The notes under the pieces were generated by a model. That model was not told where the DNA came from. It ran no database searches and worked only from the letters and a program-made list of their open reading frames with translations. A program made the position numbers and the translations under genes. From a plasmid, in the sequence record NZ_CP090413.1: DNA of 41,785 bases; one strand, given 5' to 3'. Below are positions 4,526-39,080 of the stretch, piece by piece (positions within the stretch are counted from its first letter, which is position 1; every line of letters begins with the position of its first letter).

Positions 4526-6595
4526 GTGACTAACATGGCAATTTTTCATATGAGTTTTAGTAATATTAGTGCTGGAAAAGGACGAAGTGCAATTGCCAGT
4601 GCCGCTTATCGAAGCGGTGAAAAATTATTTGATGATAAGGAAGGACGCCACTACTTTTATGCCCGCGCGGTTATGCCAGAAAGCTTTATTTTAACCCCAA
4701 AAAACGCACCAGAATGGGCCAGTAATCGAGAACAATTATGGAATGAAGTTGAAAAGAAAGATCGTAAATCAAACTCACGGTATGCAAAAGAATTTAACGT
4801 GGCTTTACCGGTAGAATTAAGTGAATCCGAACAGAAAGAATTACTGACAAAATATGTGCAAGAAAATTTTGTCGATCAAGGCATGGTAGCTGACGTAGCA
4901 ATTCATCGTGATCACCAAGATAATCCGCACGCACATGTGATGTTAACGAACCGACCATTTAACCCCGATGGTAGTTGGGGATTAAAAGCAAAGACGCAGT
5001 ACATTAAAGATGAAAATGGCAAGCAACTTTTAACCAAAAGTGGGTTTCCAAAACAAAGAAAAATTTGGTTGGTTGATTGGGATAAAAAGGAAAAAATTAA
5101 TGAGTGGCGAAAAAATTGGGCGTTGAGTGTTAATCAGTTCTTAGCACAAAAAAATATTCCGGATCGGATTAGTGAAAAATCGTTTGTGGAACAGGGAATA
5201 GCTGATACACCAATGCAACACGAGGGAATCAATAGTAAACGGCATGAAAGAAAGGCATTTAATCAACAAGTTAAGACCTATCGTAAGTCCAAAGCTGGCT
5301 ATAAAAATATGCAGGAAAAAGTAATTAATCGAGGTCATTTAGATAGCCTAAGTAAACACTTCTCATTTAATGAAAAAAGGTTGGTAAATGAGTTAAGTCA
5401 TGAACTGAAAACTTATATCAGTCTGGAGAGTTTAGATGATAAACGGCGTCTGCTATTTAATTGGAAAAACAGTACCTTAATTAAGCACGCTATTGGTGAA
5501 GATGTCACTAAGCAATTATTGACGATTAACCAACAAGAAAGTTCACTAAAAAAAGCAGATGAACTCTTAAATAAAGTAGTTGATCGCACGACTAAAAAAC
5601 TTTATCCAAAGCTTGATTTTGAACAGATAACCGCGGCTGAACGACGGGAATTGATTAAAGAAACTAATAGTGAACAAACGATTTTCAAAGGCAGTGAATT
5701 AAACGAACGTTTAATGAATATTCGTGATGATTTATTGACCCGACAATTATTGACCTTTACCAAACGGCCATACGTTGGTTGGAAGTTATTAATGCAACAA
5801 GAAAAGGAAGTCAGAATCAAGCTTAAATATACGCTGATGATTCATGATGATAGCTTAGAAAGTCTAGAACACGTTGATCAAGGTCTACTAGAAAAGTATT
5901 CACCAACCGAGCAGCAAAAGATTACTCGAGCAGTCAAAGATTTACGAACAATCATGGCTGTGAAGCAAGTTATTCAAACCCAATACCAGGAAGTTTTAAG
6001 AAGAGCCTTTCCTAACGGCGATTTTAATGAATTACCAATGATTAAACAGGAACAGGCCTATACAGCAGTGATGTACTATGATCCAGCTTTAAAACCGTGC
6101 AAGATTGAAACAATCGCACAATGGCGGGAAAATCCACCGAGGGTATTCAATACTCAGGAACATCAACAAGGACTAGCTTATCTATCGGGACAGCTGAGCT
6201 TAGATCAGTTAGATAATCACCATTTACAACGGGTTTTAAAGCATGACGGTACTAAACAACTCTTTTTGGGTGAATGCAAAGCCGATCCAATGATTAAGAA
6301 CAGTCAGATCGAGAAAATCCAAAAGCAGTTAAAAGAGCAACAAGCCAAGGACGACCAGTATAGAAAAGTAAATATGGGACATTATCAACCGCTAAATTAC
6401 AAGCCAGTTAGTCCAAGCTACTACTTAAAGACAGCCTTTAGTAACGCAATCATGACTGCCCTATATGCCCGTGATGAAGATTACGAACGACAAAAACAGA
6501 CACACGGCTTAAAAGAGACTGAGTGGGCAATGACGAAAAAGCAGCGGCAACACCAAACCCATAATCGGCATGAAGATGGGGGTATGCACTTGTAA
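4526..6595 (+). CDS. mobA: MobA/MobL (MOBQ) relaxase
   Basis: N-terminal relaxase domain with [31 protein letters not shown] (catalytic Tyr region) and the HxDxxNPHAHVM histidine triad ([18 protein letters not shown]). The likely true start is ATG at 4535 (MAIFHM) after ggtgac. The long C-terminal region has low similarity. Confidence 0.8.
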
Positions 6596-6852
6596 TTTAA
6601 ATGTAAAATAAAAAAGCTATCAGCCTGAGCGCTTAATCAGTCATATCAAAGCTTGCAACAACAAGTTCAACAAGCAAGGAACCCACAACAAAAATCAGAA
6701 CTAAAAAGTAAACTAAATGATATACACCATGAAATCAGTAATCGAACACAAAAACAGTTGCAAGCATTTACTGAAGAAAATCCATCAATCAAACAACCCA
6801 AATCCGAACCCGATCAAAGTTTAAAGCGTTAGCCAGTTTTTAAAGGTTATGC

Positions 6853-6992
6853 TATAATATAAACAGAAAAAGGAAGTCCCGCCGAAAACAGGACTTCCCG
6901 CGCAAGCCGCTTCAAAGGCGGTGGCATTAGTTAACTAAACGATAATGTCGTCTCGTAACTCGCCAAAGTTATGATCGGGGCGGCTTTTTTAT
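6853..6992 (+). ncRNA. Candidate small transcript or regulatory RNA between mobA and an IS copy
   Basis: TATAAT at 6853-6858, hairpin ggaagtcc(N10)ggacttcc at 6873-6898, further GC stems, and a terminal gatcggggcggctttttt at 6972-6990. No convincing ORF. Speculative. Confidence 0.2.
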
Positions 6993-7146
6993 TTGTGGTG
7001 CTTGTCGATATAGCTGAGTAGCGCGATTAAAAACGTGCCAAACAGCAACATCAACGAGAGTGTCTGGAAGACGCTCATTGACTGTGAAACCTTCCTGAAG
7101 ATTATTCCATGTTCCCATGGGCCTCACCTCGCAAGGAAAAAGACAG

Positions 7147-8063
7147 GTCAAGTCCAAAATGTTGGTGTAAATTAAATTCCGCGAATTTATCATTTCACAA
7201 GCTTAAGCTTACCGGCTTCTTCTGAGTCGGCATCTTTTTCAATCCCGTGGTAAACGGTCATGTTTAAGTATCGTGGACCATCAGCCCATTTTTCATTCTG
7301 TTCAATCAGTAGTGCCCCATTAGTCGCAAGACACTTAGATCATTCGGGAATATCCGGATCACACGGTCACGACGCCGGATTTCTTGATTAACCTGCTATC
7401 AAAACCGAGCACTTCTCGACGACCGCTAGGGTCGATTCCAATCGCAACGAGTAAGCTATTACTCGTCACAACATGACCATGGTGAACCTTAAATAAAGTT
7501 GCGTCGGCATACGCAAAAGCATACCCTTGCGTAAGGGGACATCGGTTAAAGTCCAGCACTTGGTCGTCCAAATTACTGCATAAAGCCGAGACCGTACTTT
7601 TAGAAAAGGTTGTCCCACATAACTTCTTAGTAATCTCAGCTACTTTACGAGTTGAAACACCTTGGATTACCATTTCCATTAATGCTAAATCAAAAGCCTG
7701 TTCACTACGCTGATAGTGTTTGAACAGTTGCGTTGAAAAATTACCATGATGGAGTTTAGGAACGTGTAGTTAAAGTGTCCCTACTCGTGTGGTAAGCTGA
7801 CAAACTCGATAACCATTCCGTGAATTGGTACGTTCATCCGAACGTTCATAAGCCCTAGCTTTAATCTGCTCAGTCGCTTCGGACTTAAGAATTTCATCAA
7901 GAATCTTGGCCATAATTGATTGCATGGCCTTATCCCGATCACCTAGTAATAGTTCCTTTAATTCGTCATCTTCTAAATTTAATTCAACCTTTGGCATAAT
8001 GAAGTTCCTTTCAGATTTCACAAAGTCCTATTTAGAATTTACACCAATTATACGGACATAACT
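7147..8063 (-). mobile_element. Internally deleted IS256-family element, copy A (approximately 917 bp)
   Basis: Ends ggtcaagtccaaaatgttggtgtaaatt (7147) and ggttatgtccgtataattggtgtaaatt (reverse complement at 8063) are imperfect inverted repeats. Identical to 38162-39080 in opposite orientation. Only the N-terminal third of the transposase remains. Confidence 0.7.
7359..8021 (-). pseudogene. IS256-family transposase remnant (N-terminal approximately 190 aa, in-frame TAA, DDE domain deleted)
   Basis: MKSERNF...NGYRVCQLTTRVGTL* then, same frame, LHVPKLHHGNFSTQLFKRYQRSEQAF...MEMVIQGVSTRKV... Aligns to IS256 Tnp RVGTLELKVPR...FERYQR with the stop replacing Glu. Confidence 0.75.
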
Positions 8064-8304
8064 ACTTATAAACATATAATACGAGAGGAATTAAACAAGA
8101 AGTTTTCTTTTATGAAGTGTTGCTAAAAATTAGACCGAAATCTAATTTTGGGCAGTCACTACATTGAGGAAAGCTTTTTTGCATTATTTCAGTTGCAAAA
8201 TTCATCATCTTATCAGCTGAATTTAGCCACTTGTCGACATTAACAACCATTGTTCACAGATATTTGCTAAGCTACGATTAAGCAATTAAGAGGAGAGTGA
8301 GCAG

Positions 8305-9171
8305 ATGAAGCTAACAACAACGGACTTAACAAAAAGATATGGTCAAAAAACGGTAGTTAAAAATCTGAATCTTGAAATACCGGCTCAATCGTTAGTTGCC
8401 TTTCTAGGGAATAATGGTGCTGGCAAGTCGACAACAATTTCGATGCTGATTGGTTTGTTGAAACCAACTGCTGGTCAAATTAATTTTCTTGATGAGCATA
8501 ATCAACCATGCCAACCCAAAATTGGAGTAGTTTTTCAAAATAGTATTCTTGATAATGAATTGACCGTCAAAGAAAATTTGTATTTTCGGGCAATGATGCA
8601 GGGAAAACAGTCGGTTGCTAATATTGGAAAAGTGACAGAGGTTTTGGGATTGAGCAACTTCCTTGAGCAAAAATATGGTAGTTTATCCGGTGGTCAAAAA
8701 CGACGTGTTGATATTGCGCGTGCCTTATTGAATGACCCCGACTTTTTATTTTTAGATGAGCCAACTACTGGATTAGATATTCAAACTCGGACGGTCATTT
8801 GGCAGCTGTTAAATGATCTGCGTCAAAAAAATAATTTGACTATTTTTTTAACAACACATTACTTAGAAGAAGCTCATGATGCTAATCTGGTTTATATCGT
8901 TAATCAAGGGGCAGTCATTGCTTGTGGTTCTGCAGCAGAAATAATTGCAGCAAATACTGAGAATTATCTTGAGATTAGGACATCGCACAAGTTTGCCTTT
9001 CCAGCTAATTGTGAAAAAGTTGGTCAAGATCAGTATCGTATAATCGATCTTCCAATTTCAGCTGCGATTGATTTTCTAGCACAGAGTCGAGCAGTAATTG
9101 AGCAATTTGAGTATCATCATGGCACACTTGACGATGCATTTATGAATTTAACTGGAAAGGAGCTGCAATAA
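8305..9171 (+). CDS. ABC transporter ATP-binding protein (ABC-2 exporter type)
   Basis: Walker A GNNGAGKST, signature LSGGQKRRVDIA, Walker B FLFLDEPTTGLD, RBS aagaggagagtgag. Confidence 0.85.
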   Translation: MKLTTTDLTKRYGQKTVVKNLNLEIPAQSLVAFLGNNGAGKSTTISMLIGLLKPTAGQINFLDEHNQPCQPKIGVVFQNSILDNELTVKENLYFRAMMQGKQSVANIGKVTEVLGLSNFLEQKYGSLSGGQKRRVDIARALLNDPDFLFLDEPTTGLDIQTRTVIWQLLNDLRQKNNLTIFLTTHYLEEAHDANLVYIVNQGAVIACGSAAEIIAANTENYLEIRTSHKFAFPANCEKVGQDQYRIIDLPISAAIDFLAQSRAVIEQFEYHHGTLDDAFMNLTGKELQ

Positions 9172-9172
9172 A

Positions 9173-10033
9173 ATGCTGCCATTAATAAGACGAAATTTAA
9201 AATTATTTTTCCGTAATCGAGCTGGAGTATTTTTTTCTTTGTTAGGAGCCTTAATTTCTTTTGGACTATTTATTATTTTTTTGAAGTCTAACATGTTAGA
9301 TTCGTGGAAACAATTGCAGCATCCAGCCAGAGTACTTGATCTTTGGGTAATTGGCGGGACATTGGCCGTGGCCAGTATTACTACGACTTTAAGTGCTTTA
9401 TCCAGAATGGTGTCAGACCTTGAATATCGGGTTTTTGATGATTTGATTTTAACTGGTTTAAGTCGCTTGAAAATTCGACTCAGTTATGTTTTGGCAGCAA
9501 CAATTATTGGAACTCTATTGCAAATAGCACTTTTTTTAATAATGGTTAGTTATTTTTCTTGGGTTGATGGCATCAGTATTCCTGGATATATCACTTTTCA
9601 AGTGTTGATAGTTACAATTTTAGCATCATTTTCAGCAAGTGTGTTGAATTTCATTCTAGTTTATCGGATGAAAAATATTGATACTGTTGGCAAGTTTTCT
9701 TCAATCGTTGGGGCAGCTTCAGGATTTTTAGTGGGAATTTATATTCCAATCGGTGTTTTGCCAACTTTTGCGCAAAATTTAGTCAAGTTAACACCAGGGG
9801 CTTATGTAGCAGCAATCTATCGTCAGCTGTTGATGCATGATATACTGAAAAACGTTCAACCAAATATTTTGCATAATTTACAAAAAACACTGGGAATTGG
9901 AATTAATTTAAATGGTAATCTAACCACAAAATTGCAAAACTTTGCAATAGTTACCGGTGTAACCGTAATTTTATTAATAATTATCTTGATTACCAACAAA
10001 CATGATCAAAATAAATCTGTTAGTACGGAGTGA
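9173..10033 (+). CDS. ABC-2 family transporter permease
   Basis: Six predicted hydrophobic spans. Start overlaps or abuts the ATPase stop, typical of two-gene ABC-2 exporter operons. Confidence 0.7.
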   Translation: MLPLIRRNLKLFFRNRAGVFFSLLGALISFGLFIIFLKSNMLDSWKQLQHPARVLDLWVIGGTLAVASITTTLSALSRMVSDLEYRVFDDLILTGLSRLKIRLSYVLAATIIGTLLQIALFLIMVSYFSWVDGISIPGYITFQVLIVTILASFSASVLNFILVYRMKNIDTVGKFSSIVGAASGFLVGIYIPIGVLPTFAQNLVKLTPGAYVAAIYRQLLMHDILKNVQPNILHNLQKTLGIGINLNGNLTTKLQNFAIVTGVTVILLIIILITNKHDQNKSVSTE

Positions 10034-10038
10034 AATAA

Positions 10039-10491
10039 ATGGAAGTACGATTTGAAAAAAACATTATAACTGGCGAAGAAATTGAAGTAATCGTTAAAGC
10101 AAATCGTTTAACTAATAATGTCAAGAGTTTAATGGCTTATATTAATCAATTTGATCAGAAGCCACATCGAATTCTACCAATTAAAACCAATGACAGTATC
10201 ATAATTGTTAAGGTGGATGATATTATCTTAGTTGATGTGCAAAAAAATACGTTGTCAATCGAAACATTGACCGCTAAGTATCTGATACAAGAACGATTGT
10301 ATAAGTTTATCCAGAAACTGCCTAAAGATATCTTTGTTCAAGTGTCAAAACATGCAGTAATTAACCTTGATTATTTGCTGTCACTTGAAGATAGCTTTGC
10401 TGGTTCGATGACTGCTAAAATGGAAAAGAGTTTGCGAACTAGTGTTAGCCGCAAGTATTTAAGCGATCTGGAAGAACATTTAGGACTTTAA
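10039..10491 (+). CDS. Stand-alone LytTR-family DNA-binding regulator (no receiver domain)
   Basis: The C-terminal approximately 100 aa (IILVDVQKNTLSIETLTAKYLIQERLYKFIQKLPKDIFVQVSKHAVINLDYLLSLED) fits the LytTR fold. The N-terminal 50 aa is too short for a REC domain. Confidence 0.7.
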   Translation: MEVRFEKNIITGEEIEVIVKANRLTNNVKSLMAYINQFDQKPHRILPIKTNDSIIIVKVDDIILVDVQKNTLSIETLTAKYLIQERLYKFIQKLPKDIFVQVSKHAVINLDYLLSLEDSFAGSMTAKMEKSLRTSVSRKYLSDLEEHLGL

Positions 10492-10504
10492 AGGGTGAAT
10501 TGTT

Positions 10505-10909
10505 ATGTCAAAAAATTTCAGAAATGTAATCAATTGTTTTACAAACGGAGTCGGATATGGTGCAACAACTTTTTTATTGTTTGTTGCCTTTGATGGGTTT
10601 CAGAGTGTAACAACATTTAATGTGCTAAGTGTTTTAATCATTAGTGGGTTAATTGGGGTGCTGACTTTAGTTTTTGACCTAGATAATTGGTCATACTTGG
10701 TTGAACTGTTGCTCCATTTTCTCGGGGCCTTTAGTTTGATTCTAGTGATGATGTGGTTGAATCATTGGCTGAGCTTACAAAATTGGTTGAATTTTTGCAT
10801 CAGCTTTATAGGAATTTATTTAATTATCTTTTTTATTGTCAAGATGAAAATAGCTTCTGATGTCAAACGGGTTAATCAAAAATTGTCTGAACGGCATCAG
10901 AAGAAATGA
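10505..10909 (+). CDS. Small polytopic membrane protein (DUF3021-like), probable membrane partner of the LytTR regulator
   Basis: 134 aa with four hydrophobic helices and a basic C-terminal tail. Immediately downstream of the LytTR gene, which is the arrangement of LytTR regulatory systems (regulator plus membrane inhibitor). Confidence 0.5.
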   Translation: MSKNFRNVINCFTNGVGYGATTFLLFVAFDGFQSVTTFNVLSVLIISGLIGVLTLVFDLDNWSYLVELLLHFLGAFSLILVMMWLNHWLSLQNWLNFCISFIGIYLIIFFIVKMKIASDVKRVNQKLSERHQKK

Positions 10910-11018
10910 GTGGGATCGTCGCATTTTTTAAAATGTTGATAAAGCTAGAAAATTGAATTTGAAGCGATCTTTAAAAGCCAGATTAAATCTGATTGAAAAG
11001 ATTGCTTTTTTAATAGCT

Positions 11019-12517
11019 GGTTAATAACATTTACAAGTAGAGCTTTGGCTTTTGATGATACTTATTTGTGCTGCGATTAAGCAACGTCTGTTTTTAAAGG
11101 AGAGTGTCAAGAATGTTGTGTAAAAAAGGAAACTTCGTCCGCATGAATTGACAATTCTAAAACATCGAATCAAGCGTGTCGTGACAGTCCTTGAATCCCC
11201 GATGTGCTCGATTCTCAAATTTATCGTTGTACTCCATTACTTGCGTCATGATAAAGCGATCGAGGGCCCCTTCGTTTGGAAACTGCTCTTTACGTCGGGC
11301 CATCTTCTTCAGGCTCTTATTAAACGACTCAATTAGGTTCGTCGAGTAGATGGTCTGACGGATCGCAGTTGGAAAACTGAAGAACGTGAATAGCTCCGCC
11401 ATTTGGACTAGATTCTTAATTCGACGCTTATAACTAGACTCCCACTTAGCACTGAAAGCCGCCAATCGTTCTTTGGCGGCTTGTAGGTTCTCTGCTTGCC
11501 GAATGGCCTTAAAGTCGGTGATAATCTCCCTGCGATCGTTTTTGCGAACGTATCCTAAAAGGTTGCGCTCTGCGTGGACCCAGCACCGTTGAAACTTCGC
11601 CTGCGGGTAGTTAGCCTCAATCGCAGATTGAAGTCCAACTAAACCGTCGACGATGAACAACTGAATATCTTTAATCCCCCGTGCGCGTAATCCCTGGAGT
11701 AGTTCAGACCAAGCGGCTCCGTTCTCGGTCGGTGCGATACTGTAGTCAAGAACTACCTTACCACCGTCACTTCGAATTCCGATCGCTACGTTAACGGCTT
11801 CTCGTTCAACGGTACCACGGCGTAACGGAATGTAAGTAGCATCGAGGAACACACAGACGTACTGTGAGTACTTGAATTTGCGCTCATGGAACTCTTCAAC
11901 CAGGTGTTCCGTCCGCTTAGTGATGTTTGAAACCGTGGTTGGTGAGTAGTAGTGGCCGTACATTCTCTCGACCATATCAGCGATTTCACGAGTTGTGACG
12001 CCCTTGGAGTACATCTTGATGACCATTTCCTCCAGTCCATCAGTTCCGACGCATGTAAAGAGGGAAGAGGGCGTTTTGAAACTTGTTTAACCGGTCCCGT
12101 GGGATCGTCAGATTAATTTCACCGTACTTAGTGTCGATAGTGCGGGTGTACGTCCCGTTCCGGTAGTTCACGTCGTCTTTTGATCGGTCGATCCGAGTAT
12201 GTGGTTCGTAGCCTAGCACCGCAGTCAGTTCATTTTGAAGGAACTGATTAGCGGCCACTTCGATTTGACGACGTAAGACTTCATTCAGGGTAATATCTTT
12301 GTCTGAAGATAGCGCTGCGATAATATCTTTGTTAAACTGGTTCATGGGGAAAGCCTCCGTATTCTGATTGGTTTTTAGCGATTTCAATCATACGGGGAAG
12401 GCTTTTCCTTTTTCAATACCCTCAAGGTATCAATTTACACAAAATATTTTACACTCCCTTCCTTTCAGATTTTACAAAGTCCTATTTAGAATTTACACCA
12501 ATTATACGGACATAACC
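11019..12517 (-). mobile_element. IS256-family insertion sequence, full length (approximately 1.5 kb), transposase frameshifted
   Basis: The right end at 12517 (reverse complement ggttatgtccgtataattggtgtaaattctaaataggactttgtaaaatctgaaagga) is near-identical to the ends of the truncated copies. The left end is tentatively placed at 11019 (ggttaataacatttacaag), 138 bp from the transposase stop. Left boundary uncertain. Confidence 0.65.
11157..12387 (-). pseudogene. IS256-family transposase split by a frameshift near 12030-12040
   Basis: ORF 12040-12387 (...INLTIPRDRLNKFQNALFPLYMRRN*) and ORF 11157-12026 (MVIKMYSKGVTTREIADMVERMYG...DDE region...) together make a full IS256-type Tnp of about 400 aa. 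The +1 frame across the junction reads TDGLEEMVIKMYSK, which would join the two parts. Confidence 0.8.
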
Positions 12518-12644
12518 AAAAGACAGCCACCGCCCTTAAAACTTCTTGCGAAGTTTATTATACAAAGAAACTCGCAACAACATCAATCAGATCGAAGTAC
12601 TAGATTTTGTTTAACGTAGTAACAAAATAAAGGAGAGGCTACCA

Positions 12645-12770
12645 ATGTGTGTACCTAATTTATTGCAGTTTGTACCTAATGATTATATTGCAAATAATTA
12701 TTTAAAAACTAATTTTTATTTAAAAGATGTTCTATGCTATAGAAAATTGGTCTCCTTCCATTCATGCTGA
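12645..12770 (+). CDS. Candidate small ORF (41 aa) with strong RBS
   Basis: aaaggagagg then ATG 7 nt downstream. Encodes MCVPNLLQFVPNDYIANNYLKTNFYLKDVLCYRKLVSFHSC. Not in the provided track (shorter than 60 aa). No recognisable family. Confidence 0.15.
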   Translation: MCVPNLLQFVPNDYIANNYLKTNFYLKDVLCYRKLVSFHSC

Positions 12771-12842
12771 TGTTCCATTAGTAAAAGTCTTAGTGTCATG
12801 CTTTTCTTATTGATTATCATGGCTTTTCTTTTGCCTATTCTC

Positions 12843-12883
12843 AAAAAGCCCGCTACCTTCCTAATGAGGTAACGGGCCTTTTG
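12843..12883. terminator. Bidirectional rho-independent terminator
   Basis: aaaaagcccgctacc-ttcctaatga-ggtaacgggcctttt: 10-bp stem (one mismatch) flanked by A-run and T-run, directly after the stop of the minus-strand gene 12894-13346. Confidence 0.5.
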
Positions 12884-12893
12884 ATATAATTTC

Positions 12894-13346
12894 CTATCCA
12901 AATAGTCCAGCTTTCTTCCAGCCACATTGTTTCAAATAATCTCGAATCGACTTTTTAATGATTGAAGTATCTAACCTAGATTCAACAATTCCAACTTTAC
13001 CGCTCTCCTTGTCCTGTCCAATACCAAAAGAAATACTTTTCTGATAAGTCTTTCCCTTAGAAAAGGAGATGTCTTTACTGAAAGATAATTTACCGTTATG
13101 CATCCTAATACTTGATATCTTGCTAGAAGTGCTATCAACCTCCTTCCATTTCCCGTTATCTTTCAAAGTAACTGTAAAAGTAAACTCTTTGTCCTCATCG
13201 GAGATTCCACCCTCAGTGAAAAACCGGGCATCCATCCATTTCCATGTACCAATAATCGAATCTCCTTCAACAGTAACTTTCCAAGGATTGTTATCAGAAT
13301 TTAGAACCTTTGGTGCGTCGCTTAAAACTTTTTCTTTCTCAATCAT
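12894..13346 (-). CDS. Hypothetical cytoplasmic protein (150 aa), beta-rich, no recognisable family
   Basis: Good RBS aaggagatga 6 nt before ATG, a tattataag -10 upstream, and the terminator downstream. No signal peptide or TM. No similarity recognised from memory. Confidence 0.5.
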   Translation of the reverse strand: MIEKEKVLSDAPKVLNSDNNPWKVTVEGDSIIGTWKWMDARFFTEGGISDEDKEFTFTVTLKDNGKWKEVDSTSSKISSIRMHNGKLSFSKDISFSKGKTYQKSISFGIGQDKESGKVGIVESRLDTSIIKKSIRDYLKQCGWKKAGLFG

Positions 13347-13649
13347 AAGAAATCATCTCCTTCTTTTGATAATCATTACTAAACATAACTAATCTTATAA
13401 TACCAAGAAGACCAGTCATATCGCCAGTAGTAAACCTGATCATACTATAACCGTAGTATACAATATCAATGATTCTAGATATAGCAAGAAGCAAAAATTG
13501 ATCGATTGTCCGGCCGATTTTATTAACTAGGGGCGATGTATCATGTAGAAATGATAAGCCGACGTCCATATGGAGCCATGATGATGGGATTTTCACCAGA
13601 TTAAAGCCATATTGGCCAATCGACAAGACATCGACGGCTTTGGCACAAT

Positions 13650-13725
13650 CCTGAAGATTATTCTATGTTTCCATGGGCCTCACCTCACAAGGGAAAAGAC
13701 AGCCACTGCCCTTAAAACTTCTTGC
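13650..13725. repeat. Intact copy of an approximately 76-bp sequence that is split by IS insertions elsewhere (7094-7146 and 12518-12549)
   Basis: cctgaagattattctatgtttccatgggcctcacctcacaagggaaaagacag|ccactgcccttaaaacttcttgc. The left half reappears at 7094-7146 (abutting the IS copy A end) and the right half at 12518-12549 (abutting the full IS end). Confidence 0.6.
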
Positions 13726-14099
13726 TCAATCCATTATACAGGAAAATTAAAAATCAACCAAGAACAATAAAACTGCTCTTGACAGCAAAGGAAAGCTACA
13801 ACCCTAGCAAGGTCAGCAAGCAAGGCTAATAGTACTGCTGCAATGGGAAATAACAAGTGTCCAGTAGGGCGGGTCCAAGAGCGGGCACAAATCCTACCAG
13901 ACAGTACAATTACAAAAGTAAAGAAGGTCATAAAATCAGCTACTAGAGGGAACTGTGGTAAAAGACAAATAAGATGGTTAAATGATGACTATAAAGTCAA
14001 GTCAGATAAACAGGTATTTGAGCATATAAATTGCTTTTGACATCTTACTTACTTATAATAAGTACAATAATAAATGACTAGTAAAAGGCGGGTAAAACA

Positions 14100-15449
14100 A
14101 TGGATAAATTTAAAAATATTATTATTGGATTTGGTAAGGCGGGTAAGACATTAGCTAAGTACTTGGCGCAGCATGATGAGACCGTGCTTCTGATCGAACG
14201 GTCAAAACAAATGTATGGAGGGACTTGCATCAATGTTGGCTGCCTACCATCTAAAAATTTAATTTTAAATGGTCAACGTGGCTTAGACTTTACTGCGGCA
14301 GTTAATAAGCGTGGTGAGATGACTAGACAGTTGCGAGACAAAAACTATCACATGGTGGCTGATGAGCCACTAGCAACGGTTTGGAATGGGTCAGCCCGTT
14401 TTATCGACAATTATGTTTTGGCAGTCGTAATGAGTGATGGAACAACTAAGAAGGTGAGAGGTGAACGCATCTTCATTAATACTGGAGCGGTTCCAAATTG
14501 GCCATCAATCCCAGGGCTAGAATTCGGTCAGCGGATTTTTACGTCTAAAGAAGCTATGGAATTGAAGAAACAACCGAAACGACTAGCAATTATTGGCGGC
14601 GGTTATATTGGCCTTGAATTTGCTGGAATGTTTAATTCATTTGGTACGCATGTAACGATTTTCGACCAACATACCAGATTGTTAGAGCGCGAAGATCCTG
14701 ATATTGCGACCGAGGTCGTAACAGATCTGACTGACGCAGGGATCGAGATTAAACCGGAGACTCAACTAACTCAAGTAAAAGATAATGGTGAGAAGGTTAC
14801 GTTATATTATCAACAAGGTGATCAAACTAACACTGCGGAATTTGATGCGGTATTAGTTGCAGTCGGTCGACGACCTAATATAAGTAGTTTAGGACTAGAA
14901 AATACTGATATTGCTTTAACCAATCGCGGTGCTATTCAGGTCGATGATCATTTAAGAACTACAGTACAAAACATTTGGGCTTTAGGTGACGTTAATGGTG
15001 GCCCTATGTTCACTTATGTCTCATTGGATGATTTTCGTATTATCATAGATCAATTGTTTGGTAAGGGGAATCGATCAACGGCTGATCGATCGGTAATACC
15101 AACTGCTTCATTCCTAAATCCACCGCTGGCCAACGTTGGCTTAAATGAACGTCAGGCCAAGAGTGCAGGTTATAACTTTCAAACTTTCAAGCTATCAGTT
15201 AAGGCGATTCCAAAGGCCCGTGTTTTAGAGGATCAACGTGGACTCTATAAGGTAATCATTGATCAAAATACACATTGTATTTTAGGGGCAACTTTGTATG
15301 CCGCTGAGGCTCATGAAACTATTAATCTAATTGCATTAGCGATAAAGGCCAAATTACCCTATGAAAAATTACGCGACATGATCTATACTCACCCAACAAT
15401 GTCTGAAGCCTTGAATGACCTTTTTAAGACTCTGGTTGTGAAAAACTAG
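14100..15449 (+). CDS. Class I pyridine nucleotide-disulfide oxidoreductase (Lpd/Gor-like flavoprotein)
   Basis: FAD Rossmann GxGxxG (IIGFGKAGKT), redox-active disulfide GGTCINVGCLPSK, second NAD(P) GxGxxG (IIGGGYIGLE), and a C-terminal dimerisation region ending HPTMSEALND. Confidence 0.8.
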   Translation: MDKFKNIIIGFGKAGKTLAKYLAQHDETVLLIERSKQMYGGTCINVGCLPSKNLILNGQRGLDFTAAVNKRGEMTRQLRDKNYHMVADEPLATVWNGSARFIDNYVLAVVMSDGTTKKVRGERIFINTGAVPNWPSIPGLEFGQRIFTSKEAMELKKQPKRLAIIGGGYIGLEFAGMFNSFGTHVTIFDQHTRLLEREDPDIATEVVTDLTDAGIEIKPETQLTQVKDNGEKVTLYYQQGDQTNTAEFDAVLVAVGRRPNISSLGLENTDIALTNRGAIQVDDHLRTTVQNIWALGDVNGGPMFTYVSLDDFRIIIDQLFGKGNRSTADRSVIPTASFLNPPLANVGLNERQAKSAGYNFQTFKLSVKAIPKARVLEDQRGLYKVIIDQNTHCILGATLYAAEAHETINLIALAIKAKLPYEKLRDMIYTHPTMSEALNDLFKTLVVKN

Positions 15450-15585
15450 CACCCTAGAAGCATAAAGAAAGAACCGTTTGGAATTTCAAATGAAACTCTA
15501 AACGGTTCTTCTTCTTAGGAGGCTTATGTCATAAACCCTCTAATAAATTACCTATATTAGTCCACTAAAGGCCATCCAATCATGA

Positions 15586-18471
15586 TCAGATAGTAAACCT
15601 GTTTATAACTACTAAACCTAAGCTTAATAGTAACATTACTATTCCAACGAACATCATACCTATTGATGATCTATCACCTGTTTGAGGTAATCTACTTGTT
15701 TTATCGTATGTTTTACCTTGAGTGAAATCTTTTGGTACTACCTTATTTCCATTATTAGGAACTTGAGGTTTCTTAGGCGTTGTCGGATTATGGGTATTAG
15801 TAATATTGTAACCATCAACAGTACTTGTGTACCCCGCAACTGCGTTTTCCGTAACCGTGTAGGTAATCTTCTTGCCATTAGCATAAGCGGCTAGGTTGTC
15901 AAAACTGTACTGCCAGTTATCACTAGCGCTTACCGTCTTGCTTGCAACTTGTTGACCATTGGCCAATAAGTTTACTGTGATTGAACTTGGGCGAATTCCA
16001 TCTTGATTGTTGTTATCGTTCCAAGTCTTGGTGCCAGATACCTTAACAGTGGCAGGAGTGTGGTTGTTAGTTACGTTGTAACCATCAACAGTACTTGTGT
16101 ACCCCGCAACTGCGTTTTCCGTAACCGTGTAGGTAATCTTCTTGCCATTAGCATAAGCGGCTAGGTTGTCAAAACTGTACTGCCAGTTATCACTAGCGCT
16201 TACCGTCTTGCTTGCAACTTGCCGACCGTTAGCCAATAAGTTTACTGTGATTGAACTTGGGCGAATTCCATCTTGATTGTTGTCATCGTTCCAAGTCTTT
16301 GTTCCGGATACCTTAACAGTGGCAGGAGTGTGGTTGTTGGTTACGTTGTAACCATCAACAGTACTTGTGTACCCCGCAACTGCGTCTTCCGTAACTGTGT
16401 AGGTAATCTTCTTACCATTAGCATAAGCAGCTAGGTTGTCAAAACTGTATTGCCAGTTATCACTAGCACTAACCGTCTTGCTTGCAACTTGTTGACCATT
16501 GGCCAATAAGTTTACTGTGATTGAACTTGGGCGGATTCCATCTTGATTGTTGTTATCCTTCCAAGTCTTTGTTCCGGATACCTTAACAGTGGCAGGAGTG
16601 TGGTTGTTGGTTACGTTGTAACCATCAACAGTACTTGTGTACCCCGCAACTGCGTCTTCCGTAACTGTGTAGGTAATCTTCTTACCATTAGCATAAGCAG
16701 CTAGGTTGTCAAAACTATATTGCCAGTTATCACTAGCGCTAACCGTCTTACTTGCGACTTGTTGACCATTGGCCAATAAGTTCACTGTGATTGAACTTGG
16801 GCGGATTCCATCTTGATTGTTGTTATCGTTCCAAGTCTTTGTTCCAGAAACTGAGGTTTTCTCAATCTTATCGATAATTTTAATAACGGCACCTTTTGAA
16901 TCAAAATTTGTAGAAGTTACGATTACCATATCTGCTAATTGATATCCCTTAGGTGCACTGACCTCTTTCAATTGGTAACTATCACGTAACAACCCATAGA
17001 TAGTGCCCTGTCCTGAGGAATCTGTTGTGATAGTTCCTACAACTTCTCCGGTTGACTGTCGAATTACATCAAAGATAGCGCCATGTAATGGATTGCCAGA
17101 TTCATCCACCTTTTTTATTGTTAAACTATAGTTATATCCGTTTGCAGTACCATTTGCCTCTTGATAATATACTGTATTAGTGTACTCGTTCATCTTATGA
17201 TTATTATATAGATAACTTGATGAGTTTTTAATTTGTTCTCCGTTAATCAACTTATGAGAAGGCTTTACCTTATATGTGATAAGGAAACCCTGATTGATAT
17301 TACCAAGATTCACAGAAAAAGATGAGCCATTGAATTCAGGGGTATATTTTTCAGTTACTTCTTTATAGTTAGCCAATGACCAATAGTTATTTTTGTCCTT
17401 AAACCAGGTTCCAGTTGCAATTTTTATGCTTGACTGTTCATAATTAACTCCAGCAGAATTAAGAATATCCTTAATAATAACATTATTCCGTTCAGAATTA
17501 GTTGTGTTTATAATAATACGGTAGCTAAGTTCATTATTATCATAATCCATCCACCCATATTTATAAAAATCAATATTACTATCACCTTTATTAACTTTAT
17601 AGCTTATACCCGTGCTATCGATAGTAACTACATTCCCGTTTATTTTAATTGTTGCAGGAAGTACAGTGTCTTTCTTCACCTTTTCTGTATCAGCCATTAT
17701 TTGCATATTAATGTGGCCGGTAACATCATTATGTTTATCTACATAGTCTGTGTATGTTAAGACCAGCGTCTTTTTTTCTTTATTGATAATTGCACTAGCA
17801 ACCGTAGTCACCCCATCAGGAGCGTAGACATTAAATGATTGATCTCTAGTAAAATCCAACTCATTAGGAAGTGATATTGTCGTATAATCTCCGGATCTTA
17901 CTGAATTAGGAACAGAAAAGTCAAAAGAGAATTCTGTAGTTCCTCCACCTGAGATCTCCTTAGTTGATGATCTCTGATTGGTAATTGTAATATCAACGCT
18001 AGTTCCTTTATTATGTGCAGATGGGGAACTATTATTCTTAGAAATACTATTAACTGATGGACCCTGATTAGTATTAGCCCCACTATTAGAAGTCGAGTAT
18101 TGACTATTACTTATATAATTACGGTCCTCCTGAACTGGCTGATTATTGTCAGTTGGTGCTCTCGGTTGTGCTTCTGTATTAGTAACTTGTTTCTGAGACG
18201 CCTGATCGTCCGAAGAACTAGTATTATCTGTGGTATTACTATTAACGGTACTTATCTGCGGTTCTTCCTGTTGATTAATAACAGTCCCGGACCCCGTACC
18301 GTTCTGAGTAATATTTGTCTTGCTATCAGCATATACGGTCATACCACTATTAGATGATATCCATATTGACCCTAATAACGAAAATAAGACTAGTCCCATC
18401 ATAAATAAAAGTCGACGATACCTAGATTTATTACTCATACTGTTGCCTCCTTCTTTGTTTTCTATGCGCAA
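15586..18471 (-). CDS. LPXTG-anchored surface adhesin (MSCRAMM-like) with four Cna-B-type repeats
   Basis: N-terminal signal peptide (RYRRLLFMMGLVLFSLLGSIWISS), S/T/N-rich linker, Ig-like/collagen-binding-like region, 4 x 90-aa repeats (VSGTKTWNDNNNQDGIRPSSITVNLLANGQQVASKTVSASDNWQYSFDNLAAYANGKKITYTVTE.AVAGYTSTVDGYNVTNNHTPATVK), and C-terminal LPQTGD plus hydrophobic span plus basic tail (sortase motif). Confidence 0.85.
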   Translation of the reverse strand: MRIENKEGGNSMSNKSRYRRLLFMMGLVLFSLLGSIWISSNSGMTVYADSKTNITQNGTGSGTVINQQEEPQISTVNSNTTDNTSSSDDQASQKQVTNTEAQPRAPTDNNQPVQEDRNYISNSQYSTSNSGANTNQGPSVNSISKNNSSPSAHNKGTSVDITITNQRSSTKEISGGGTTEFSFDFSVPNSVRSGDYTTISLPNELDFTRDQSFNVYAPDGVTTVASAIINKEKKTLVLTYTDYVDKHNDVTGHINMQIMADTEKVKKDTVLPATIKINGNVVTIDSTGISYKVNKGDSNIDFYKYGWMDYDNNELSYRIIINTTNSERNNVIIKDILNSAGVNYEQSSIKIATGTWFKDKNNYWSLANYKEVTEKYTPEFNGSSFSVNLGNINQGFLITYKVKPSHKLINGEQIKNSSSYLYNNHKMNEYTNTVYYQEANGTANGYNYSLTIKKVDESGNPLHGAIFDVIRQSTGEVVGTITTDSSGQGTIYGLLRDSYQLKEVSAPKGYQLADMVIVTSTNFDSKGAVIKIIDKIEKTSVSGTKTWNDNNNQDGIRPSSITVNLLANGQQVASKTVSASDNWQYSFDNLAAYANGKKITYTVTEDAVAGYTSTVDGYNVTNNHTPATVKVSGTKTWKDNNNQDGIRPSSITVNLLANGQQVASKTVSASDNWQYSFDNLAAYANGKKITYTVTEDAVAGYTSTVDGYNVTNNHTPATVKVSGTKTWNDDNNQDGIRPSSITVNLLANGRQVASKTVSASDNWQYSFDNLAAYANGKKITYTVTENAVAGYTSTVDGYNVTNNHTPATVKVSGTKTWNDNNNQDGIRPSSITVNLLANGQQVASKTVSASDNWQYSFDNLAAYANGKKITYTVTENAVAGYTSTVDGYNITNTHNPTTPKKPQVPNNGNKVVPKDFTQGKTYDKTSRLPQTGDRSSIGMMFVGIVMLLLSLGLVVINRFTI
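15790..16870 (-). repeat. 4 x 270-bp near-identical tandem repeats (coding, Cna-B units)
   Basis: The anchor string gtaaccatcaacagtacttgtgtaccccgcaactgcg recurs at 15808, 16078, 16348 and 16618 (period exactly 270 bp), with only a few substitutions between units. Confidence 0.85.
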
Positions 18472-18574: not shown

Positions 18575-18935
18575 TCACTAACCGTCAATAGTGACATCAC
18601 TAGTATTAGCATAGTTATCAAACATATGTTCCCAATGACATAACAAAGGCGCTGTATCGACAGTGAAAAAGCCGGCACAGCGCCTTTTGTTATATTCAAA
18701 TTCTGGTCTCCTCTATAGGATTTCTCATTTTCATATTCATTAGATTGAAAGGCTTATATGGCCGGGACCTGCTTCTCTTTGCACGTTTAGACTCGGTAGC
18801 CAGCTTACTCCAAAATATTCCGTATTAAACAAAACATAAGCTTCAAGAAGAAAAAAGACCAAGTCATAACCGCAAAAACTATTAAAGTCGACTTGACTTT
18901 TATCAAAACAGTCGTACAATGTTTTTAATTAGATT

Positions 18936-22335: not shown

Positions 22336-22554
22336 ATGGACCACTACAAGCATATTACCATAGATGAACGGGAAACCATCTTTTTAATGAGGAATCATGG
22401 AAACTCACTTCTTGAGATTGCCAGCTATACCAAGAAAAGTTACTCAACCATTTCTCGAGAATTAAGTCGTAATTCTACTGGTAAATCCTATTCACCTTCG
22501 AAGGCTCAGGAGAAGTACAAACAGCGCAAAGAGAAGCAGGTCCCGACCATATAA
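22336..22554 (+). pseudogene. IS30-family transposase N-terminal fragment (HTH region only)
   Basis: MDHYKHITIDERETIFLMRNHGNSLLEIASYTKKSYSTISRELSRNS matches the N-terminal HTH of IS30-type transposases. The ORF stops after 72 aa with no catalytic domain downstream. Confidence 0.55.
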
Positions 22555-22774
22555 GCCTTTCAATCTAATATTCCAAAAACAGAAATGGGATTGACTTTAG
22601 ATGATCCTATAGATGCAAATGAACTGTTTATCCCTATTCATGACTGTTAAAGTACACAAACCTCAAGATATTAATAATTTAAGATTGGGAGATATATAAG
22701 CTCTTGGGGTATATTTTTACTAATTTTTCATGAAAGAAAATTGAACAAATTTGTATAGCAATTCTCTTATAAGT

Positions 22775-27967: not shown

Positions 27968-28552
27968 ATGGCTAAAATCGGTTATGCACGTGTGAGTTCC
28001 AAGGAGCAACATTTAGATCGACAGTTAGCGGCTTTAAAAGACGTTGATAAATTATTTGCGGATAAATTAAGTGGGGCTAACACTAAGCGGCCAGAACTGC
28101 AAAAAATGCTGGCCTATATTCGCGAGGGTGATATTGTCCTGGTCACTGAATTAGATCGCTTAGGCAGAAACAACCAGGATTTAACTAAGATCATGAACAC
28201 CATTCAAAATAAGGGGGCCACCCTAGATGTGTTAAATTTGCCGTCCATGACGGGAATTGCTGATCCTAACTTGCGTCAACTGATGACTAACCTCATCATT
28301 GAACTGTATAAGTATCAGGCGGAAAGCGAACGTAAGCGGATCATCGAACGTCAGCAACAAGGGATTGCCTTAGCTAAGCAGCAGGGTAAATATCATGGGC
28401 GCAAACCCCAATACACCCAAGACGATCCCCGCTTGCAACATGCTTTTAAGCTTTACCAGGCAGGCATGAGTGACATTGATGTGGCTCGAAATACTGGGAT
28501 TAAACGGACGACCTTTATCAGATATCGCAAAAAGTTTAATATAAAAAGATGA
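27968..28552 (+). CDS. Serine recombinase (resolvase/invertase family)
   Basis: MAKIGYARVSSKEQ (catalytic Ser region), DRLGRN motif, and a C-terminal HTH GIKRTTFIRYRKKF. 194 aa, RBS aaaggaga. Confidence 0.85.
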   Translation: MAKIGYARVSSKEQHLDRQLAALKDVDKLFADKLSGANTKRPELQKMLAYIREGDIVLVTELDRLGRNNQDLTKIMNTIQNKGATLDVLNLPSMTGIADPNLRQLMTNLIIELYKYQAESERKRIIERQQQGIALAKQQGKYHGRKPQYTQDDPRLQHAFKLYQAGMSDIDVARNTGIKRTTFIRYRKKFNIKR

Positions 28553-28684
28553 GACTTATATGTCAGTGACGTGTACCCCCAAAATTAAAAACCGTTTTTA
28601 TAAGCAGCAAAACTATTTTGAGAAAATGATGGGAATCATGTTAGAGTGGTATCATTTATTAATCGGAATGCAAACAACTGTGCT
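28303..28684. repeat. Direct repeat copy 1 (3' half of recombinase gene plus about 130 bp downstream)
   Basis: About 93% identical to 33031-33399 apart from a 17-bp indel. Confidence 0.75.
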
Positions 28685-33005: not shown

Positions 33006-33030
33006 ATTAGTTAGACAGAAACAATCAGGA

Positions 33031-33399
33031 CTCTATAAGTATCAGGCCGAAAGTGAACGTAAACGAATCATTGAGCGCCAGCAGCAAGGAATTGCCTTAG
33101 CTAAGCGACAGGGTAAATATCATGGGCGCAAACCCCAATACACCCAAGATGATCCCCGCCTGCAACATGCTTTTAAGCTTTACCAGGCAGGCATGAGTGA
33201 CATTGATGTGACTCGAAATACCGGGATTAAACGGACGACCTTTATCAGATATCGCAAAAAGTTTAATATAAAAAGATGAGACTTATATGTCAGATAAATT
33301 AAAAACCGTTTTTTATGAGCAGCAAAACTATTTTGAGAAAATGATGGGAATCATGTTAGAGTGGTATCATTTATTAATCGGAATGCAAACAACTGTGCT
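33031..33399 (+). pseudogene. Direct repeat copy 2: 5'-truncated recombinase gene relic
   Basis: Encodes ...LYKYQAESERKRIIERQQQGIALAKRQGKYHGRKPQYTQDDPRLQHAFKLYQAGMSDIDVTRNTGIKRTTFIRYRKKFNIKR* with no N-terminal catalytic half. Confidence 0.75.
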
Positions 33400-38161: not shown

Positions 38162-39080
38162 GGTTATGTCCGTATAATTGGTGTAAATTCTAAATAGGAC
38201 TTTGTGAAATCTGAAAGGAACTTCATTATGCCAAAGGTTGAATTAAATTTAGAAGATGACGAATTAAAGGAACTATTACTAGGTGATCGGGATAAGGCCA
38301 TGCAATCAATTATGGCCAAGATTCTTGATGAAATTCTTAAGTCCGAAGCGACTGAGCAGATTAAAGCTAGGGCTTATGAACGTTCGGATGAACGTACCAA
38401 TTCACGGAATGGTTATCGAGTTTGTCAGCTTACCACACGAGTAGGGACACTTTAACTACACGTTCCTAAACTCCATCATGGTAATTTTTCAACGCAACTG
38501 TTCAAACGCTATCAGCGTAGTGAACAGGCTTTTGATTTAGCATTAATGGAAATGGTAATCCAAGGTGTTTCAACTCGTAAAGTAGCTGAGATTACTAAGA
38601 AGTTATGTGGGACAACCTTTTCTAAAAGTACGGTCTCGGCTTTATGCAGTAATTTGGACGACCAAGTGCTGGACTTTAACCGATGTCCCCTTACGCAAGG
38701 GTATGCTTTTGCGTATGCCGACGCAACTTTATTTAAGGTTCACCATGGTCATGTTGTGACGAGTAATAGCTTACTCGTTGCGATTGGAATCGACCCTAGC
38801 GGTCGTCGAGAAGTGCTCGGTTTTGATAGCAGGTTAATCAAGAAATCCGGCGTCGTGACCGTGTGATCCGGATATTCCCGAATGATCTAAGTGTCTTGCG
38901 ACTAATGGGGGCACTACTGATTGAACAGAATGAAAAATGGGCTGCTGGTCCACGATACTTAAACATGACCGTTTACCACGGAATTGAAAAAGATGCCGAC
39001 TCAGAAGAAGCCGGTAAGCTTAAGCTTGTGAAATGATAAATTCGCGGAATTTAATTTACACCAACATTTTGGACTTGACC
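38162..39080 (+). mobile_element. Internally deleted IS256-family element, copy B (identical to copy A, inverted)
   Basis: ggttatgtccgtataattggtgtaaatt... at 38162 and ...ccaacattttggacttgacc at 39080. The ORF fragments are identical to those of copy A. Confidence 0.7.
38204..38866 (+). pseudogene. IS256-family transposase remnant (same as 7359-8021)
   Basis: Same 83-aa and 106-aa fragments in one frame, separated by TAA at 38453-38455. Confidence 0.75.

Follow-up and report, generated by a model that had tools for sequence, protein, structure and literature searches.

How did a four-gene exporter cassette come to lie, between the remains of insertion sequences (ISs), within the 5′ leader of a small toxin gene? 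The question is posed by the plasmid sequence record NZ_CP090413.1, of which we analysed a stretch of 41,785 nucleotides (nt), hereafter the window, carrying the block in question at positions 7146–12517. A first-pass annotation made from the letters alone had read this region as a truncated IS256-type copy, an ABC-2 exporter with LytTR and DUF3021 genes and a full IS256-type copy, flanked by an 8-bp direct repeat, and had proposed that it moved as one composite transposon or arose as a single insertion later expanded. Very probably, one transposition event through two ends of a single IS256-family element (IS1) created the 8-bp duplication AAAAGACA in the toxin leader. The history we tentatively prefer, at a little short of an even chance, is that the 5,372 bp seen today did not arrive as they now stand, a resident IS1 (or an IS1-flanked precursor) having later been expanded or remodelled. 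The either/or framing of the annotation remains correct, with evidence on both sides.

The window (41.8 kb) belongs to rep_cluster_707 and represents a MobQ-type mobilisable plasmid from the family of Ligilactobacillus salivarius pSF118-44 (a plasmid of L. salivarius UCC118) and pHN1 (a plasmid of CECT 5713). It is 100% identical to pHN1 over 1–2264, repA included, and 99.9% identical over 8040–15839. The latter stretch, which holds the cassette, the right-hand IS, a 59-bp IS stub, the right junction and the downstream backbone, is 99–99.9% identical in pSF118-44, pHN1 and the plasmid of strain Ren, and the cassette and right junction are already in public reference plasmids. Throughout, IS1 denotes the left-arm IS256-family type (1,331 bp when intact), IS1d its 918-bp deletion derivative and IS2 the second element; a literature search for ISLasa names returned no usable name for either IS.

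The target-site duplication and the insertion sequence ends

The repeat reported by the first-pass annotation, AAAGACAG, is found at 7139–7146 and 12519–12526. The full string shared by the two sides is 9 nt long, AAAAGACAG, at 7138–7146 and 12518–12526. An independent full-length IS1 in an L. paracasei plasmid (L007), reading GGTCAAG...ATAACC between exact 8-bp copies of CGATTATT, sets the ends of the IS: the element here spans 7146–12517, a length of 5,372 bp, and AAAAGACA is the true duplication. The direct repeat is thereby a genuine IS256-family target duplication, one base off the register first given. The ninth matching base, a G, opens the IS at the left junction, and at the right junction it is the next base of the native sequence.

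7138–7145, no strand: left copy of the target-site duplication, AAAAGACA, in the register given by the CGATTATT duplication of L007
12518–12525, no strand: right copy of the target-site duplication, AAAAGACA, with the same junction in pHN1, pSF118-44 and 14 metagenome loci
Flanks and IS1 ends as a pattern: CGCAAGG[AG]AAAAGACA-GGTCAAG...ATAACC-AAAAGACAGCC

The left junction (7145/7146) reads ...CGCAAGGAAAAAGACA up to the boundary and GGTCAAGTCC... beyond it, and the right junction (12517/12518) reads ...ACGGACATAACC followed by AAAAGACAGCCACC.... At the base composition of the window, the chance of an 8-nt identity at two fixed positions is approximately 2e-5. Both CGATTATT at the L007 copy and AAAAGACA here agree with the 8–9 bp target-site duplications of the IS256 family.

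The two arms enclosed by this duplication, together with a further copy of the left-arm element elsewhere in the window, were delimited as follows.

7146–8063, minus strand: left arm, IS1d, a 918-bp non-autonomous IS256-family element (Transposase_mut fragments, inverted repeat I11, alignment to the pSF118-20 copy)
11100–12458, minus strand: IS2, a second, unrelated IS256-family element, full length, 1,359 bp (Pfam matches on both open reading frame (ORF) pieces, alignment to intact L. fermentum copies)
12459–12517, minus strand: 59-bp stub, the left inverted repeat (IRL) end of the IS1 type, forming the outer right terminus (direct repeat D7; I8, inverted with 7146–7173)
38162–39080, plus strand: second IS1d copy, 919 bp, inverted relative to the left arm (I1 and I2, 99–100% identity)

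The left IS had been called truncated. It is internally deleted instead, with both the right inverted repeat (IRR, 7146–7173) and the IRL (8036–8063) kept. Against the 1,331-bp copy of pSF118-20, which is approximately 95% identical and encodes a 406-residue 'IS256 family transposase', it has lost 412 bp at about 7396/7397 and acquired stop codons; its fragments at 7359–7679 and 7770–8021 match the mutator-type DDE transposase family PF00872 (E 2e-25 and 1e-10). The terminal inverted repeats are imperfect, I11 (7147–7173/8036–8062) and I8 (7146–7173/12490–12517) being 74–75% complementary over 27–28 nt, in line with the approximately 25–30 bp expected in the IS256 family. The flanks of the arm, AAAAGACA outside and ACTTATAA inside, indicate no duplication of its own.

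Nor do we find two copies of one IS in the same orientation, as had been supposed, since the right element is not related to the left: IS1 and IS2 share no nucleotide similarity (7146–8063 versus 11100–12458), and their transposases are 27% identical. What had been taken for a full copy of the left IS is this different element plus the 59-bp stub of the left type. A single inserted nucleotide, an A at 12045, breaks the IS2 transposase into ORFs of 115 and 289 residues. Flanked by TTTTAAAG and TTCCTTTC, IS2 has no duplication of its own here; a copy in L. fermentum (L023) does carry an 8-bp duplication, CAGAAACG. The G+C content is 27–38% across the cassette versus 42–51% across IS2. The stub is 98% identical to 8005–8062 (D7), and its repeated 58 bp begins exactly at the IS2 junction, a boundary that fits a putative IS2 insertion into a right-hand IS1 copy, with an adjacent deletion then removing the rest of that copy. 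With an IS1d IRR at one outer terminus and an IRL stub of the same type at the other, the duplication brackets two ends of one IS type.

The second IS1d copy shares the 412-bp deletion with the left arm, from which it departs at four positions; it lacks a target duplication and is kept at the same place in pHN1 and in a plasmid with an empty site (L004, see below). It appears to serve as a recombination substrate, as judged from a variant in a gut metagenome contig (L015) and from L. portuensis pLV1, where the flanks of IS1d are reassorted. Around none of the 918-bp IS1d copies was a duplication of their own found. Independent mobility of IS1d was considered and rejected on this ground; outside this plasmid family, L. 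portuensis pLV1 alone has the deletion junction. A tree of the IS1d copies, intended to split orthologs from paralogs, suffered from a shortage of variable sites and from variants common to copies of the same plasmid. As for the right arm, L. fermentum plasmids (H4 and H6) were examined for IS2 within a complete IS1; both ISs are separate there, so they hold no precursor of it.

Empty and filled sites in related plasmids

An uninterrupted version of the target had been placed at 13691–13711 within the window. The underlying match stands: the left flank (7082–7146) and the right flank (12518–12564) match the internal paralog 13638–13740 at 86–87% with a 9-nt overlap. As an empty site, the paralog was ruled out, being a truncated second toxin leader with its promoter; the real empty sites sit in relatives. 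Four of these, sharing the same mobQ-toxin-hyp150 backbone, have both flanks contiguous with one copy of the 9-mer, in line with the earlier proposal of one inserted block within a target duplication. In the L. salivarius 2D plasmid (L004), 6609–7146 directly abuts 12518–15467, and the reconstructed site aligns in one piece; the L. paragasseri and L. gasseri plasmids (L024 and L025) have the same empty site, as does a metagenome contig (L051) with a right flank 99.5% identical. Across the relatives, the locus occurs in five arrangements.

Arrangement 1, empty site: L004, L024, L025 and L051
Arrangement 2, window-type: the window and a contig of Limosilactobacillus gastricus PS3 (L018)
Arrangement 3, window-type plus an extra IS1d-SMI1-HNH segment: L015
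Arrangement 4, pHN1-type, the commonest: pHN1, pSF118-44, strain Ren and nine of the ten listed contigs with the exact permease
Arrangement 5, pHN1-type without the cassette and one IS2-stub repeat: L049, a metagenome contig of 50,234 bp

L. gastricus PS3 keeps the filled site in colinear order across 13.3 kb, its left repeat copy reading GAAAGACA, and L015 has both junctions with the extra segment between them. No filled relative differs at the right junction, the 14 informative loci of the metagenome scan included. Because empty and filled sites both recur in relatives, the insertion is real and an artefact unlikely.

In the pHN1-type arrangement, the left flank leads into a toxin leader that is intact and carries another variant of the promoter, and then into HxlR-ADH-hyp, a module also kept beside toxin loci in other lactobacillus plasmids. 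There follow a 412-bp IS2 fragment with an IS1 stub, the cassette, IS2, the stub and the same right junction. In pSF118-44, pHN1 and strain Ren, the left junction is thus gone and the cassette is bracketed by IS2-stub direct repeats, whereas in the window it is bracketed by the target duplication. The L049 arrangement is the product expected of recombination between the IS2-stub repeats, by which the cassette would have been gained or lost. For interpreting the insertion, the window and the L. gastricus PS3 contig are of value since they retain both original junctions, the left of which has been lost from the reference plasmids pSF118-44 and pHN1. In pSF118-44 (L002, approximately 6147–6198), a 52-nt stretch (GAGACTAAC...GATGTGTA) stands in place of the last 13 nt of the left-arm IS1 IRL tip; this stretch recurs in the metagenome loci L039 and L041.

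History of the block

The history we prefer would begin with an IS1 copy, or an IS1-flanked precursor, occupying a site in the toxin 5′ leader. Its interior would then have been built or remodelled by homologous recombination among IS copies, the cargo being added to the resident IS1 by recombination or through replicon fusion followed by deletion. IS2 would have inserted, nested, 59 bp from the IRL end, and an IS2-adjacent deletion would have removed the remainder of the right arm. The most economical order of the arrangements would run from the empty site through an IS1-end insertion, which made both junctions, to the window-type, then to the pHN1-type, in which the left junction was replaced, and finally to the L049-type. 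Remodelling is favoured by the L015, pHN1-type and L049 arrangements, by the reassorted IS1d flanks in L. portuensis pLV1 and by the left-arm 412-bp deletion, which is common to the copy resident in the empty-site backbone (L004).

The alternative that survives best, one with a real chance of being right even though we lean away from it, is en bloc composite transposition. An IS1-cassette-IS1 structure, with or without a nested IS2, would have moved whole by its outer IRR and IRL, with transposase supplied by an intact arm or in trans, making AAAAGACA on arrival, and its arms would have decayed later. IS256-family compound transposons are established, Tn4001 being an example, and the outer ends here are correctly inverted around an exact 8-bp duplication with neither arm having one of its own. 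The following weighs against our preferred history. Both outer inverted repeats are intact and the inner IRL tip of the left arm is mutated to ATAACT, from ATAACC, in the window, L015 and L018, as would favour a move of the whole block; neither PLSDB nor the fetched contigs yielded an IS1-only insertion or intermediate at this site; every filled site with the left junction also carries the cassette; and of several step-by-step routes sketched from the window-type to the pHN1-type, none was compelling. Pulling the other way, and in favour of remodelling, the search for further insertion sites, which covered PLSDB hits, 48 long contigs, 14 informative metagenome loci and look-ups of exact proteins, found the unit at no second site in the PLSDB hits, the long contigs or the metagenome loci, all of which share the right flank. 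Moreover, the left arm carries the deletion of a copy already resident in the backbone, so that en bloc delivery needs an extra conversion step or a local origin, and gain or loss of the cassette by recombination is directly visible in relatives.

An extension of the same idea, which we consider improbable, would make the block a working non-autonomous 'cargo IS' that hops between plasmids with IS1 transposase provided in trans, e.g., by the pSF118-20 copy, its outer ends being preferred over the mutated inner tip. Its landing would disarm an addiction toxin, and the pSF118-44 arrangement would represent recombinational repair restoring the toxin promoter. If this were true, the insertion in the toxin leader would not be neutral.

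Two independent IS1 insertions into the same 8-mer of paralogous toxin leaders, with the junctions later joined by recombination, are very improbable. The plasmid family does contain several toxin-leader copies (13638–13774 here, two per record in pHN1), and the commonest relatives, of the pHN1-type, have the right junction without the left. However, the empty-site relatives show that the exact flanks are natural neighbours, so that no paralog is needed, and insertion at the same position and in the same orientation twice is improbable in itself. In L005, L007, L024 and L025, the leader is uninterrupted with IS1 elsewhere, so that nothing points to the toxin leader as a preferred target of IS1. 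Such a hot spot, considered separately, is likewise unsupported, IS1 lying elsewhere in L006 as well as in these four plasmids.

Least credible of all is an assembly error in which the 918-bp repeat wrongly linked the left flank with the cassette: IS1d does occur twice in the window at 99.6% identity, a length of repeat that can mislead short-read assemblers, but the left junction and duplication recur in independent assemblies (the L. gastricus PS3 contig L018 and the metagenome contig L015) and the two IS1d copies differ at four positions.

Compound-transposon status and mobility

Measured against a compound transposon, the block shares the placement of the duplication, AAAAGACA, at its outer ends only. 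In place of two copies of the same IS, its right arm is a 59-bp IS1 stub beside an unrelated IS; we infer that there were two fuller IS1 copies in the past. No working transposase is present, the left arm being deleted and interrupted by stops and IS2, whose ends differ from those of IS1, frameshifted at 12045. Instead of several sites with different duplications, a single site was found in PLSDB, the 48 long contigs and the 14 metagenome loci. The present structure therefore falls short of a compound transposon in three defining respects, namely two copies, a working transposase and several sites. Since there is no intact transposase inside the unit, movement would occur only with a full-length IS1 transposase in trans. 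The description of the block as mobilisable holds in principle, and to that extent only, given the lack of an intact transposase within it and its one insertion site. By analogy, the structure would work like an IS256-family compound transposon, or like a pseudo-compound structure reshaped by recombination.

The interrupted toxin–antitoxin locus

The insertion lies 60–67 nt upstream of the start codon of a small toxin gene, in a leader that is conserved across plasmids as far as 12549.

6855–6946, plus strand: RatA-like antitoxin RNA of the interrupted type I toxin-antitoxin locus (Rfam RF01776, full-length, 53.5 bits versus a gathering score of 49)
6989–7078, minus strand: ORF of a 29-residue holin-like toxin, MSVFQTLSLMLLFGTFLIALLSYIDKHHK (PF16935 Hol_Tox, E 2.2e-13, 50.3 bits versus a cut-off of 23.3)
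7079–7145, minus strand: proximal toxin 5′ leader, cut off from its promoter (runs on into 12518 in L004, L024, L025 and L051)
12526–12586, minus strand: distal toxin leader with the orphaned promoter (TTGATG-18-TATAAT at 12586–12557, 10/12 matches in the promoter scan)
13638–13774, minus strand: paralogous remnant of a second toxin leader and promoter (repeats D5 and D10, alignment)

By its Hol_Tox and RatA matches, the target locus is a TxpA/RatA-type type I toxin-antitoxin system, with toxicity and RNA control predicted. The equivalent ORF in pHN1 and pSF118-44 is annotated 'putative holin-like toxin'. An identity with Lpt of L. rhamnosus was considered and not established, Lpt being described as an Fst-like peptide. 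Since the best promoter match lies beyond the insertion, the toxin ORF is parted from its promoter by 5.4 kb and the antitoxin gene, beside which a promoter-like TAGCCA-17-TATAAT stands at 6830–6858, is untouched. We infer from this layout that the split leader would alter toxin expression. The naturally occurring set of an empty site, a split toxin and a toxin with another promoter suits tests of the role of the toxin in plasmid maintenance.

Beside the remnant at 13638–13774, neither a toxin ORF nor a RatA match was found. The corresponding leader of L. gasseri plasmids is part of a second toxin module that is complete, with HxlR-ADH after it.

The exporter cassette and its regulator

Pfam bears out the gene content that had been assigned to the cassette from its translations.

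8205–8273, plus strand: candidate LytTR operator and promoter, TCATCTTAT-12-GCCACTTGT, 10 nt, AACCAT-14-TGCTAAGCT
8305–9171, plus strand: ABC transporter ATP-binding protein, 288 residues (PF00005, E 2.8e-33)
9173–10033, plus strand: ABC-2 type permease, 286 residues (PF01061, E 4.5e-11)
10039–10491, plus strand: LytTR DNA-binding regulator without a receiver domain, 150 residues (PF04397 at residues 53–148, E 1.2e-18)
10505–10909, plus strand: DUF3021 membrane protein, presumed from the role given in PMC6193735 to inhibit its LytTR partner (PF11457, E 6.6e-25)

For the transporter, only generic DrrAB-like ABC-2 models gave matches, all of them short of the curated cut-offs; the best NCBIfam match of the ATPase is drrA, with 203 bits versus a cut-off of 312. 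A specific substrate was sought in NCBIfam, which gave only these sub-threshold matches, and on such generic similarity the resistance role that the earlier designation ('resistance or regulation cassette') allowed for is unproven. The identical permease protein occurs in 3,524 blocks of the assembly collection.

The DUF3021 gene starts 14 nt past the LytTR stop codon. In the LytTR regulatory systems described from Streptococcus mutans, a LytTR regulator is followed by a DUF3021 membrane inhibitor and is often tied to ABC transporter genes; a DUF3021 or DUF2154 membrane protein encoded immediately downstream of the regulator represses the autoregulated operon (PMC6193735). Their operators consist of two 9-bp direct repeats 11–13 bp apart, just upstream of the −35 element of the operon (PMC6193735, Tables 2–3). 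The cargo is a self-contained operon of four genes, which would work as a system of this kind, switching on its own exporter once the DUF3021 partner releases the regulator. Upstream of its operon, the candidate operator has the published spacings (12 bp and 10 bp) and aligns with the layout upstream of the Liquorilactobacillus mali ortholog. What speaks against it is that its repeats (8205–8234) match at only 6/9 positions, a degree as frequent in shuffled sequence, and that no repeat pair matching at 7/9 or more was found upstream of the operon. Beyond S. mutans, this class of cargo, LytTR/DUF3021 with an exporter, has almost no functional work.

The first-pass annotation had suggested a search for the cassette with and without flanking ISs, and an IS-free version does exist. 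L. mali has the same four-gene operon at 72% nucleotide identity with no IS nearby, between phosphoketolase, HAD hydrolase and glycosyltransferase genes as its neighbours, a locus that shows the cassette as what appears to be an ordinary resident operon.

Two further observations concern the meeting of IS1 with such genes. A promoter-like CGGACA-16-TATAAT at 8053–8080 spans the border between the IS1 IRL tip and the beginning of the cassette, pointing toward the ABC operon, and could be a hybrid promoter. In L. fermentum pSNU175-3 (L022, 486–2832), a different LytTR and DUF3021 pair abuts the IRR end of a full-length IS1, a second association of this regulatory pair with IS1.

Other repeats in the window and scope of the findings

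Several repeats lie elsewhere in the window. Three 46-nt direct repeats at 422–587, two of them identical and spaced 54–66 nt apart, fall within the repA coding region and are iteron-like. Inverted repeats of 44 nt, 98% complementary, stand around approximately 3.7 kb (18739–18782 and 22526–22569); the pHN1 counterpart of this stretch encodes an ECF-type transporter module, and the segment may be mobile or invertible. Four tandem 270-nt repeats at 15772–16881 are located in a gene for a 961-residue surface protein (ORF 15586–18471, minus strand), relatives of which show Cna_B/SpaA marks and vary in product length from 756 to 1,052 residues between related contigs. Direct repeats of approximately 370 nt, 94% identical and 4.7 kb apart, occur in the recombinase region (28303–28684 and 33030–33399).

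Taken together, the locus represents ordinary mobile-element biology in a well-sampled plasmid family, and the findings on the block at 7146–12517 leave the understanding of IS-mediated gene movement unchanged. Their added value is modest and lies in the corrected anatomy, target and cargo. The plasmid family is very common in human-gut lactobacilli, and a correct parts list is now at hand for its variable region.

Comparison with known systems

Tn4001 is an IS256-bounded compound transposon, whose arms are intact, inverted IS256 copies that supply the transposase. The block resembles it in having IS256-family arms around a cargo and an 8-bp duplication at the outer ends. Unlike in Tn4001, the arms here point the same way and survive as a 918-bp deletion derivative and a 59-bp stub, the right arm has an unrelated IS nested in it, and the block is known from sequence alone.

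The pseudo-compound structures and translocatable units of the IS26 type offer a behavioural analogy only. As with IS26 units, the cassette and one IS copy are present or absent between direct IS repeats, as a comparison of the pHN1-type with L049 illustrates, and the content between the junctions varies. However, the IS family is a different one, and gain and loss here would be most simply explained by host homologous recombination rather than by a dedicated transposase reaction.

The target locus finds its counterpart in the TxpA/RatA type I systems (RF01776, PF16935), with which it shares a Hol_Tox peptide, here of 29 residues, and a convergent RatA-like RNA on the opposite strand. It differs from them in being plasmid-borne in lactobacilli and, in the window, in having its toxin leader split from the promoter by the insertion.

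For the cargo, the closest parallels are SMU_433/434 and SMU_1070c/1069c of S. mutans and lmo0984-0987 of L. monocytogenes, where a stand-alone LytTR gene likewise lies immediately upstream of a DUF3021 gene near ABC genes (PMC6193735). The candidate repeats of the window, separated by 12 bp and followed after 10 bp by a weak −35 with an extended −10, share the layout of these LytTR systems (PMC6193735). In contrast to the S. mutans systems, the one described here rides in an IS-bounded plasmid block, and its likeness to them rests on domains and layout.

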